Assembly: GCA_016716905.1 (NCBI GenBank)
Contig: JADJUS010000022.1
Span: 140,053-204,052, forward strand
Direction: 5' to 3'
DNA: 64,000 bases
DNA from: Acidobacteriota bacterium
Lineage (GTDB): Bacteria > Acidobacteriota > Vicinamibacteria > Vicinamibacterales > SCN-69-37
The position numbers and the translations under genes are program-made. The notes under the pieces are model-generated. The model was given only the letters and a program-made list of their open reading frames with translations, was not told the origin of the DNA and did not search any database. Positions 15,627 through 47,687 of this stretch are shown here, piece by piece (the first letter of the stretch is position 1; each line of letters opens with the position of its first letter).

Positions 15627-16854
15627 GCCGGCACCGCCGACGAGCCCCCGGATCGTCCGCGAGCGGATTGGACCTGCGCTGCGAGCCACCCGGCAAATTC
15701 GGCGGCGGGCTCGATGGTGACGCGCAGGGGCCACTCGTAGACGGGCACGGGCAGTGGACGCAGCGCGCGCAGGCGAACGGCATCTTTACTTGTGGTGAGG
15801 ACACCGGCGGCGCCACCCGCGCGGACATCGCGCGCGAGGCGCGCGAGGTCCGCGCGCGTGTAGCGGTGGTGGTCGCCGGGGCCCCAGGCCCCGGCGACCA
15901 CATAGCCGGCGTCTTCGACCGCGCGGGTGAATCGCGCCGGGCCGGCGATGCCGGCCAGCGCGATCACGCGCGCGCCGGGCGCCAGCGCCGGGACGCCCGT
16001 CTCGATCGAGACGGGCGTCCCGGTGTGGCGAACGAGGCGGAAAGGGGACGGGTGTCGATCTGTGGAAAACCCGGTCACGGAAAAGACGTCGGGTGTCTTT
16101 TTGGCGGACGCAGGCAAAAAGACACCCGACGTCTTTTCCCCAGCCGGGTTTTCCACAGATCGACACCCGTCCCCCTGTGTGCCCCGGTCCTCAATCACCG
16201 CGTCGGCGCGCGCCAGCGCCGACACCGGCTCCCGCAGCGCGCCGAACGGCGCGCGGCGGCCCGTCAGGTCGCCCGGCGTCACAAGTACCAGGTCCACATC
16301 GCGCGCCATCTGCCGATGCTGAAACCCGTCGTCGAGCACCAGGGCGGTGGCCCGCAGGATGTGGCGCGCGAACGCGCCGGCGATCGCCCGCTGGTCGCAC
16401 ACCAGCACGGCGACGCCGGGCAGATCCCTGGCCAGCATCAGTGGTTCGTCGCCCGCGCGATCCACATCGGCCAGCAGGTGCCGCCCGTCCGAGACCACCA
16501 CCACGCCATCCTCTGTCCGTCGCCGGCCGTAGCCCCTGGAAAGAATCGCGGGCCGTTCACCCATTTCAAGGAGCAGCCGCGCAATGGCCGCCACAGTGGG
16601 CGTCTTCCCCCGCCCACCAAACGCGATATTCCCGACGGAGATTACGAAAGGGGACGGGTGTCGATCTGTGGAAAACCCGGCTGATGGGAAAACGACCGCT
16701 GAGCGGAAAACGACCTCTGAGGTAGTTTTTTCGGCGGAAGGGACAAAAACTACCTCAGAGGTCGTTTTCCCAGCAGCGGTCGTTTTCCCCTGAGCCGGGT
16801 TTTCCACAGATCGACACCCGTCCCCCTCTCTTCCCCGATCTCCGGTCAGCCCGT

Positions 16855-16858
<4 letters not shown>
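15623..16858 (-). CDS. lpxK: tetraacyldisaccharide 4'-kinase carrying in-frame palindromic insertions
   Basis: GTG start 16858 overlaps the waaA stop (GTGA). Motifs: P-loop VISVGNIAFGGRGKTP, SRGYG, GDEP, DDGFQH, LREP, AGIAGPARF, GDHH and TTSKDAVRL. The frame is continuous through the elements at 15987-16173 and 16650-16825. Confidence 0.8.
15987..16022. repeat. perfect 36-bp palindrome inside lpxK
   Basis: ccgggacgcccgtctcgatcgagacgggcgtcccgg equals its own reverse complement, checked base by base. Confidence 0.95.
16043..16173. mobile_element. MITE/RPE-like nested palindromic element A (131 bp)
   Basis: Perfect 31-bp terminal inverted repeats at 16043-16073 and 16143-16173. Inner hairpin is 16078-16101 / 16115-16138 with loop GGCGGACGCAGGC. 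Confidence 0.8.
16650..16825. mobile_element. MITE/RPE-like nested palindromic element B (176 bp)
   Basis: Carries the same 31-bp terminal inverted repeats as element A (16650-16680 / 16795-16825). Two further nested inverted repeats lie at 16686-16701 / 16774-16789 and 16705-16730 / 16745-16770. Confidence 0.8.
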
Positions 16859-46463: not shown

Positions 46464-47675
46464 ATGTCTTCGCCTGCGCGGCGCCCGCTGTCCCGTCCCG
46501 ATGCGCCGCCCGGTGCCCTGCGCTGGATCCTCGTCATCGTCTTTCTGGACATGATGGGTTTGGGCCTGCTGGTGCCGGTGATCCCCCTGATCGTGCGTGA
46601 GTTTCGTGCCGACGCACTGACGATTGGCTGGCTCTCGCTGGCGTATGCGGCCGCCCAGTTTGTGACCACGCCCCTGCTTGGCGCGTGGTCAGACCGTCAT
46701 GGCCGGCGAGGCGTGCTGTTGCTCAGTTTCCTGGGTTCGGCCGTCGCGTATTTTGCATTCGGATGGGCTCCGGCCTTGTGGGTGCTCTTCGCCGGCCGGA
46801 TCGTTGATGGCCTGACCGGCGCCAACGTCGGCATGTCGCAGGCGTACATCGCCGACATTACGGAAGCCGGCCAACGTTCGCGTGCGCTGGCGCTCTCGGG
46901 TGTGGCACTCGGCACCGGATTCATCGTGGGCCCACTCGTGGGCATCGGTCTCTCGGCGTTCGGACCGCACGTGCCGGCATTTACGGCGGGAGGCCTGGCA
47001 CTGGCCAGCACGATCCTCGCATGGTGGCGGCTGCCGGAGTCACTGGCGCCTGGTACCCGGGCCGCGCCGGCGGCGACACACCAACTGAATCCGTTTGCGC
47101 CGCTCCTGCAGGCGCTCGGCCGCAGCTCCCTTCGGCCGCTCCTGATCGCGACGTTTCTCGCAAGCTTCGCCATGGCGGCGCTGCGTTCACACTTCGCGTT
47201 TTTTGCGATCGCGGTCCTGGCGTTCAGCCAGTCGGATGCCAACCGCGTCATCGCGTTCCTCGGGGTGATGATGGTCGTCGCTCAGGGCGGACTCGTCCGA
47301 CAGGCCGTGCAGCGTTGGGGCGATCACGGCACGCTTGTGGTGGGACTGGTGCTGAGTGCCATTGGGTTCGCCGGCCTCTCGGTCGCGTTCTCGCCGTCGA
47401 TGCTGTACCTGATGGTCGCGGTCACCGCCGTTGGCGTTGGCCTCGGCACCCCGACGATGGCGGCGCTCGTCTCACACCGCTCGGGTGCCATTGAGCAGGG
47501 CGTGATGCTGGGCGCTGCACAGGCGGCGGCGGCGCTCGCACAGGTCTTGGGTCCCGTCTGGGCGGGTTTTATCTTCGATCGCGCCGGGCCACAGTTTCCG
47601 TTCAGCACCGGCGCCGCCCTCGTCGCAGCCGCCCTGCTTGTCGTGACGCTCAATCGCCCGAAAAACGACCTCTGA
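46464..47675 (+). CDS. MFS transporter (TCR/Tet-like)
   Basis: 12 TM helices with MFS motif A: GAWSDRHGRRGVLLLS. Confidence 0.85.
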   Translation: MSSPARRPLSRPDAPPGALRWILVIVFLDMMGLGLLVPVIPLIVREFRADALTIGWLSLAYAAAQFVTTPLLGAWSDRHGRRGVLLLSFLGSAVAYFAFGWAPALWVLFAGRIVDGLTGANVGMSQAYIADITEAGQRSRALALSGVALGTGFIVGPLVGIGLSAFGPHVPAFTAGGLALASTILAWWRLPESLAPGTRAAPAATHQLNPFAPLLQALGRSSLRPLLIATFLASFAMAALRSHFAFFAIAVLAFSQSDANRVIAFLGVMMVVAQGGLVRQAVQRWGDHGTLVVGLVLSAIGFAGLSVAFSPSMLYLMVAVTAVGVGLGTPTMAALVSHRSGAIEQGVMLGAAQAAAALAQVLGPVWAGFIFDRAGPQFPFSTGAALVAAALLVVTLNRPKNDL

Positions 47676-47687
47676 GGTCGTTTTCTT
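47661..47687 (+). terminator. intrinsic-terminator-like hairpin straddling the MFS stop codon
   Basis: aaaacgacctc-t-gaggtcgtttt followed by cttc (T-rich). The sequence is related to the inner arm of element B in lpxK. Confidence 0.6.

Follow-up and report, generated by a model that had tools for sequence, protein, structure and literature searches.

Nested palindromic repeats in frame within an acidobacterial lpxK gene: a probable REPIN-like population with cassette turnover at hairpin tips

What kind of DNA places two long, layered hairpins in frame within an essential gene, and why do these hairpins share their borders and keep perfect pairing while their stems differ? We addressed these questions in a 64,000-nt stretch of an Acidobacteriota genome of the Vicinamibacterales (GenBank assembly GCA_016716905.1, contig JADJUS010000022.1; hereafter the window), in which lpxK, the gene for tetraacyldisaccharide 4'-kinase, carries two such elements, A and B (Table 1). 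The original prediction, made from the sequence of these elements, offered selection on DNA or RNA structure rather than on sequence as one explanation, and interchangeable hairpin cassettes at a fixed site of an outer element as another. Our analysis favors the cassettes: elements A and B are probably nested stacks of non-autonomous palindromic repeats, a selfish population resembling REPINs and Rickettsia palindromic elements (RPEs) whose cassettes turn over at hairpin tips. We use "outer element" for the element with 27-nt inverted ends, and A-type, B-type and C-type for three hairpin repeat families.

The inner modules of both elements are present in the sequence and at the coordinates originally described. 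Module A reads GGAAAA, GACGTCGGGTGTC, TTTTT, the loop GGCGGACGCAGGC, AAAAA, GACACCCGACGTC and TTTTCC, and is bordered on both sides by 8-nt remnants of the outer loop (16071-16078 and 16140-16147); module B reads GGAAAA, CGACCTCTGAGGTAG, a T-run, a loop, AAAAA, CTACCTCAGAGGTCG and TTTTCC. Stem complementarity is perfect in each (13/13 in module A and 15/15 in module B), as had been claimed, while the accompanying statement that the stems are unrelated in sequence is overstated, since 8/13 positions are shared at a 1-nt offset, a match read from the sequence that is marginal once offsets are allowed for. Both modules fold far better than their shuffles. As single-stranded DNA (ssDNA), module A reaches -32.3 kcal/mol (shuffle mean -8.4; z = -11.4) and module B -28.7 kcal/mol (shuffle mean -7.5; z = -9.1), with 0/200 shuffles as good in either case; the complete element A reaches -75.7 kcal/mol as ssDNA (z = -17.3) and the complete element B -152.3 kcal/mol as RNA (z = -21.2). 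The predicted fold of element B consists of three helices split by symmetric 3x3 internal loops, its middle layer being a 16-bp helix between two such loops; this third layer had not been separated in the earlier description. The window contains 4 occurrences of the outer 29-mer, where 0 are expected, and a scan of all 64 kb found no further hairpin as large as elements A and B.

Table 1. Coordinates of the repeat elements, their layers and associated features in the window
Feature	Position	Strand	Details
Element A: outer element with A-type module	16040..16176	.	arms 60 nt, 93% complementary; site A, variable LpxK surface region
Element A, left 27-nt end (GGGGACGGGTGTCGATCTGTGGAAAAC)	16044..16070	+	
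Element A, right 27-nt end, inverted copy	16148..16174	-	
A-type hairpin module, 61 nt	16079..16139	.	stems 16085-16097 and 16121-16133, loop 16103-16115
Element B: outer element, variant B-type unit and B-type doublet, in three layers from outside to inside	16646..16827	.	arms 81 nt, 94% complementary
Element B, left 27-nt end	16650..16676	+	
Element B, right 27-nt end	16799..16825	-	
Element B middle layer, left arm GGGAAAACGACCGCTGAGC, left part of variant B-type unit	16686..16704	+	partner 16771-16789
Element B middle layer, right arm CAGCAGCGGTCGTTTTCCC	16771..16789	-	
B-type doublet module, 66 nt	16705..16770	.	units 16711-16725 and 16750-16764, loop 16731-16744
Solitary B-type unit GAAAAACGACCTCTGAGGTCGTTTTC	47660..47685	+	3' end of open reading frame 46464-47675; -9.5 kcal/mol, z = -6.1
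lpxK (tetraacyldisaccharide 4'-kinase), 411 aa	15623..16858	-	Pfam LpxK, E = 5.9e-66, residues 59-396
Perfect palindrome, 18+18 nt, no spacer	15988..16023	.	lpxK coding, 17 nt from element A, encodes GTPVSIETGVP

Each layer belongs to a family that is dispersed in related DNA. A scan of species-representative genomes returned one relative, a metagenome-assembled genome (MAG; L001), and a metagenome scan returned 46 loci; the outer-element search needed an exact 19-mer. Across these 46 loci and the MAG, the outer element is present in 49 copies with invariant 27-nt inverted ends (GGGGACGGGTGTCGATCTGTGGAAAAC), a total length of 71-176 nt and an inner length of 17-122 nt. What lies inside varies with that length. 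The inner part of minimal copies is 17-18 nt of unrelated loop, copies with 28-33 nt have an additional variable stem, those with 43-85 nt contain a B-type unit or doublet, those with 77 nt contain an A-type module, and the inner length of 122 nt is that of element B itself. The A-type family (GGAAAA-GACGTCGGGTGTC-TTTTT...) has 13 copies with hairpins of 49-61 nt, and the B-type family has 20 doublets plus several singles in related DNA. The B-type unit is a 15-nt palindrome, CGACCTCWGAGGTCG, preceded by an A-run and followed by a T-run (consensus CGACCTCWGAGGT(C/A)G), and it usually occurs as an inverted doublet with a variable spacer of about 22-28 nt. A-type and B-type hairpins are both also found without any outer element, either after stop codons or in frame in genes, for example in an EamA transporter gene. 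In 374 kb of related DNA, 63/109 perfect hairpins belong to the outer, A-type or B-type families. Neither viral contigs (searched for all three families) nor a literature search for the repeat sequences gave a match.

Nesting is central. In 13/15 nested copies the left and right outer-loop remnants (7-10 nt each) total 16-18 nt, which matches the 17-18-nt apical segment of all minimal outer copies, and one level down the B-type doublet likewise sits at the center of the B-type unit. The contents of orthologous sites also differ between relatives. Depending on the relative, the content of the two lpxK sites ranges from a bare 17-nt loop or an extended stem to an A-type or B-type module, with inner lengths of 122, 77 (A-type), 17 and 32 nt at site B and of 77, 17, 17 and 17 nt at site A. 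Where one genome has an A-type module in the histidine ammonia-lyase gene, another shows a plain extended stem; intergenic orthologous sites vary between related genomes in the same manner, and a single unit in L003 stands at the site of a doublet in L012; the right remnant of L012 is the exact complement of its left remnant, and that of its orthologue L003 is unrelated.

A survey of LpxK orthologues used a query without the inserts, so that the sample was not chosen for carrying the element. In orthologues at 61-87% identity, the N-terminus and site A bear peptides encoded by hairpins of the outer, A-type, B-type or C-type family, some of them decayed (GDGSRTVEN...FSTVRHPSP), and the ends are either intact at both sides or decayed at both sides; lineages at 55-60% identity, which are more distantly related Vicinamibacterales, are free of inserts at both places. 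We confirmed the hairpins in the DNA of four surveyed lineages (L051-L054). In about 20/23 lineages (P0002-P0053) the same family occupies both lpxK sites, down to sub-variants, which suggests that the sites exchange their contents or that both are replaced by whichever family is active in the genome. [quoted passage not shown]

Other parts of the original description fared less well. The scaffold GGAAAA/TTTTT/AAAAA/TTTTCC, described as conserved, is present in A-type and B-type copies as the border of the unit and is absent from the C-type hairpins at the lpxK sites. These C-type hairpins (GAGCTCGGAGGCGAAATTG; L051 5259-5328 and 5777-5839, L052 8267-8339) fill both lpxK sites in one lineage, with tandem left arms at the first site and without GGAAAA/TTTTCC. 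The loop core GGCGGA, also described as conserved, is not a feature of either family: elsewhere among A-type and B-type copies the loops differ, and several GC-rich loops of such size should contain GGCGG through chance alone. The module A loop GGCGGACGCAGGC matches the loop of the minimal outer copy at L037 1193-1209 (reverse complement GGCGGAAACAGGC) at 11/13 positions, and the element B loop has TCGGCGGAA in common with the same L037 loop, a similarity that is marginal after multiple comparisons. We rejected a conserved loop motif, whether GGCGGA or the 11/13 match, since, once multiple comparisons are allowed for, chance could account for either in GC-rich loops (partly an estimate).

The elements are accommodated in the reading frames of their hosts. 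The lpxK reading frame is open through elements A and B and the Pfam LpxK domain spans the inserts, with the alignment to Aquifex LpxK (PDB 4EHX) interrupted where element A lies. Element B stands at the waaA/lpxK junction, where the GTG start of lpxK overlaps the waaA stop. Just after element B (16826-16858) the window has GTA where the MAG L001 (2800-2830) has GTG, a possible lpxK start; translation in the window must therefore begin at the waaA-overlapping GTG and run through element B, which, if translated from this GTG, must form the predicted N-terminus of LpxK. Only 1/6 frames of element B is open, and this is the lpxK frame. In-frame hosts are lpxK, uvrC, a cytochrome oxidase I-III fusion, the histidine ammonia-lyase gene hutH and EamA. 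Inner lengths share one residue modulo 3 at each site, as in the two lpxK series given above; they are 30, 30 and 30 nt in uvrC and 32 nt in four oxidase copies. We rejected an intron or other spliced element, since no genic site has a length that would break the frame and element B is open in the lpxK frame only, and likewise a CRISPR-like repeat, since the ends are inverted rather than direct and form no array. Examples of predicted insert-encoded peptides are GDGCRSVENPAGEK and KTTSEVVF.

These patterns suggest how the elements could have arisen from three families, namely the outer element, whose ends are invariant and whose 17-nt apical segment is free, the A-type hairpin and the B-type unit. 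The shared scaffold would be the A/T border of A-type and B-type units, and the different stems would simply mark different families. Perfect pairing would follow from each module being copied whole as an inverted doublet of a single unit. New layers may enter at the hairpin tip, through an ssDNA hairpin mechanism of the REPIN/RAYT kind or through repair of a break at the tip, and gene conversion, using the identical ends, may exchange contents among copies. Selection on lpxK, an essential gene, would retain only in-frame, stop-free versions, so that translation of the element would add a peptide at the surface or the N-terminus, as in RPEs. Stand-alone A/T-flanked hairpins after stop codons are probably terminators, judging from sequence and position.

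Several observations weigh against such a population of REPIN-like selfish repeats. A tblastn search with seven RAYT/TIRYT proteins (supplement of PMC3733652) against about 450 kb of window and loci found none, in a setting where a single-copy gene is easily missed. No consistent direct repeat that would indicate a target-site duplication or junction motif was seen at the copies, and no pair of ends encloses a gene, as an autonomous copy would, in any locus. Among orthologous copies (lpxK, uvrC, cox and upstream of an M14 peptidase gene) the ends are 98% identical and the flanks 84% (70-100%), a difference that a purely selfish element does not obviously predict and that is partly ascertainment through the exact 19-mer. 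Nearly all lineages of the clade keep some hairpin at both lpxK sites, so that a hairpin could be useful there. The outer 27-nt end is not itself a palindrome (-1.2 kcal/mol, z = -0.59), as a REPIN end would be, and many copies are intragenic and in frame (lpxK, uvrC, cox, hutH, EamA), whereas REPINs are almost exclusively extragenic. Finally, it is from frame and stop-codon patterns that we infer the elements to be translated rather than spliced out. Host-level selection on the ends was considered and is weakened by the ascertainment and by decayed ends in the unbiased set of LpxK orthologues. A further peptide search with a concatenated six-frame query returned 10 proteins, with no transposase among them.

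If the hairpins were instead functional and selected for their shape, as attenuators, mRNA stability elements, or RNase III or DNA-binding sites tuning waaA-lpxK-lpxL, different sequences could have been recruited to the same two positions. This would fit the persistence of a hairpin at both sites while the family changes, the outer ends that are much better conserved than the flanking coding DNA, and the covariation between arms. In an alignment of 34 outer copies, covering the ends and the nine inner positions that follow, pairing is found in 90.7% of cells and the covariation score is 0.105 vs. 0.053 when shuffled (0/500 reach it) and at most 0.062 with slid partners; for 20 B-type doublets (17 distinct) the corresponding values are 93.2%, 0.188, 0.073 and at most 0.064. 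We relied on explicit pair counts rather than a covariance model because the A-type and B-type families are not homologous column by column. The larger collection thus confirms that arms co-vary above controls, yet stem sequence is conserved within each family. The B-type stem has 12 core pairs that are invariant in the 17 distinct doublets, and the paired changes amount to a handful of alleles (TAG/CTA, TCG/CGA, TAA/TTA), carried by both arms and common to many copies, and are inherited rather than recurrent. Such covariation is as expected for inverted doublets copied as units and does not require selection on shape. Broken pairs show no bias of G-U over A-C mismatches (too few cases), and Rfam gave nothing at gathering score, with only sub-threshold generic miRNA hairpins (best 73.8 bits against a gathering score of 116.6). 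Moreover, uvrC, cox, hutH, EamA and intergenic sites are among the many unrelated loci that carry these repeats as well, the inner 30 nt of three orthologous uvrC copies are about 70% identical with pairing mostly lost, and many lineages have decayed ends. Hairpins would also persist at a site if an essential gene seldom loses them by precise in-frame deletion. Selection on structure, the other explanation initially put forward, is therefore superfluous and partly contradicted by within-family stem conservation and by the pairing loss in uvrC, and we consider it unlikely.

Palindromes could alternatively be made in place, by quasi-palindrome template switching, fold-back synthesis or arm-to-arm correction. 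The contrast between the remnants of L012 and L003, with a single unit in the latter, would be explained in this way, and so would the flanks just outside solo modules, which are often complementary (pairs 1-3), the two unrelated coding palindromes among the 4/7 perfect hairpins of the window that lie in lpxK, and end changes in elements not used for ascertainment, which are mostly on both arms (L009, L045, L025). Local mutation cannot, however, yield identical stems of 13-27 nt at dozens of unlinked loci from different metagenomes, and at most it perfects or extends hairpins after the arrival of a copy; we regard it as a quite improbable origin. To assembly artefacts in the form of fold-back chimeras we give next to no credence. 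Library artefacts can produce perfect long inverted repeats, and L001 ends soon after the second lpxK site, but the elements are base-for-base identical in the independent ENA and JGI assemblies L038, L049 and L050, which differ from the window elsewhere by about 0.3%, so the hairpins are not artefacts; related copies also occur in 46 loci from many projects, with host frames that stay open. A more speculative and rather unlikely idea is that hairpin tips are rewritable cassette sites, at which dedicated ssDNA machinery inserts or replaces palindromic modules at the apex and keeps the master-sequence ends. Fixed positions, even in lpxK, would then be overwritten by whichever hairpin family is active in a lineage, proteins would gain lineage-specific peptide inserts as a by-product, and the process could also seed extra perfect palindromes in lpxK coding sequence.

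Comparison with known systems places the population of nested repeats closest to REPINs in its workings and to RPEs in being tolerated by genes, while it falls outside strict REP/REPIN membership on two tested features, the end that is not a palindrome and the intragenic copies. In REPINs, inverted ends that are conserved enclose a variable spacer able to form a hairpin, and compensatory changes are frequent (Bertels and Rainey 2011, PMC3116915), and conserved inverted ends around a less conserved, hairpin-capable spacer are likewise found in the outer element (17-122 nt) and in B-type doublets. Singlets, head-to-head doublets and clusters, with several co-resident families, are also features in common (PMC3116915, PMC3733652), and the B-type unit is itself a short palindrome like REP (-9.5 kcal/mol, z = -6.1). 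A REPIN master sequence is retained while its cognate RAYT is present and decays after RAYT loss (bioRxiv 10.1101/2021.07.10.451892); here, ends are intact in some lineages and decayed in others, as in the LpxK peptide quoted above. Unlike the GTAG/CGTC REP superfamilies (PMC3733652), our repeats have no unpaired tag, GTAG occurring in the stem of one B-type allele and CGTC inside the A-type stem. Acidobacteria are known to have a TIRYT group together with long inverted repeats, some starting GGGGWSAS (PMC3733652); the outer end starts GGGGACGG and agrees at 7/8 positions, a lead only, as one position is off and no TIRYT gene was found beside any copy.

RPEs share in-frame insertion, an intact host reading frame and an added peptide, lpxK being open through both elements. 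They are reportedly palindromic repeats of about 100-150 nt, described by Ogata et al. in 2000, that lie in frame in protein genes, including essential ones. They are discussed in Di Nocera et al. 2013 (PMC3733652). The present elements are probably unrelated to RPEs in sequence, belong to another phylum, and are modular and nested, with turnover at fixed sites. Bacterial MITEs such as Correia elements are small, non-autonomous and hairpin-capable, have terminal inverted repeats and may contain terminator-like structures (review PMC10969869). Small size, dispersal and terminal inverted ends (27 nt; 71-176 nt in total) recall these elements, whereas there is no evident target-site duplication, no parent insertion sequence with the same ends was found, and the whole element is a near-perfect palindrome. 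In terms of target choice, there are precedents in mobile DNA for a specific preference for hairpins: IS1397 and ISKpn1 insert in REP palindrome loops, and group II introns target terminator hairpins. Those elements are autonomous, whereas the incoming DNA here is a tiny hairpin without coding capacity. A term search found no mention in PMC3116915 or PMC3733652 of one family nesting in the tip of another in up to three layers, and more generally central multi-layer nesting, family turnover inside an essential gene and family matching between two sites 0.5 kb apart are not mentioned in the repeat literature cited here.

REP and REPIN repeats are usually described as extragenic and single-layer, in Proteobacteria and a few other phyla. 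In this poorly studied acidobacterial clade of soil and freshwater, several co-resident hairpin families nest in one another's tips in up to three layers, sit in frame in essential genes and are exchanged between lineages at conserved positions. Single sites offer a natural series (bare 17-nt loop, extended stem, one module, two modules) that is useful for studying growth, swapping and protein tolerance of palindromic repeats. There are practical consequences as well: gene callers mis-start lpxK, one call lacking the P-loop; assemblies may break at the hairpins, as where L001 ends; and covariation tests will call DNA-level palindromes "structure".

Solo A-type and B-type copies resemble intrinsic (bidirectional) terminators, being GC-rich hairpins that an A-run precedes and a T-run follows, often directly behind a stop codon, and differ from these in that the same sequence occurs at many loci and also inside reading frames. 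The solitary B-type unit of the window contains the TGA stop codon of open reading frame 46464-47675, with the next reading frame 34 nt on, and its position is terminator-like. A terminator consensus scan did not flag this unit, probably because its A/T runs pair and consume the T tail. A further solo copy lies directly after a stop codon in L014, behind an oxidase gene. L007 (2126-2444) and L014 (7067-7385) also have clusters of 4-5 GC-rich perfect hairpins with arms of 11-16 nt and loops of 2-12 nt, located immediately downstream of the cytochrome oxidase gene with its doublet (B-type or A-type). At a distance of about 15 nt from the 27-nt end, on its outer side, about 1/3 of outer-element ends (L001-L047) have a loose GATC(G)GGG...A(T/G)A(G/A) motif, which may be a degenerate outer layer or a target preference.

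The lpxK gene, whose neighbors are waaA, a lipid-A acyltransferase gene and heptosyltransferase genes, has some further peculiarities. LpxK of this clade is without the N-terminal helix of the solved Aquifex enzyme, and the public gene call P0002 starts after the P-loop, which is almost certainly wrong. Within 1.2 kb, lpxK holds more than half of the perfect hairpins of the 64-kb window (4/7; simulated mean 1.65 per window). The palindrome next to element A (Table 1) includes GACGGGCGTC, which resembles the tip of the outer end, its membership in the repeat system being uncertain. A second coding palindrome at 15869-15901 has 15-nt arms and encodes VVAGAWGPGDH, and lpxK coding palindromes are also found at L001 3394-3427, L038 4053-4088 and L043 7410-7447. 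For the motif GACGGGYGTC, 1.2 occurrences are expected in the window and 8 are found, 6 of them inside lpxK.

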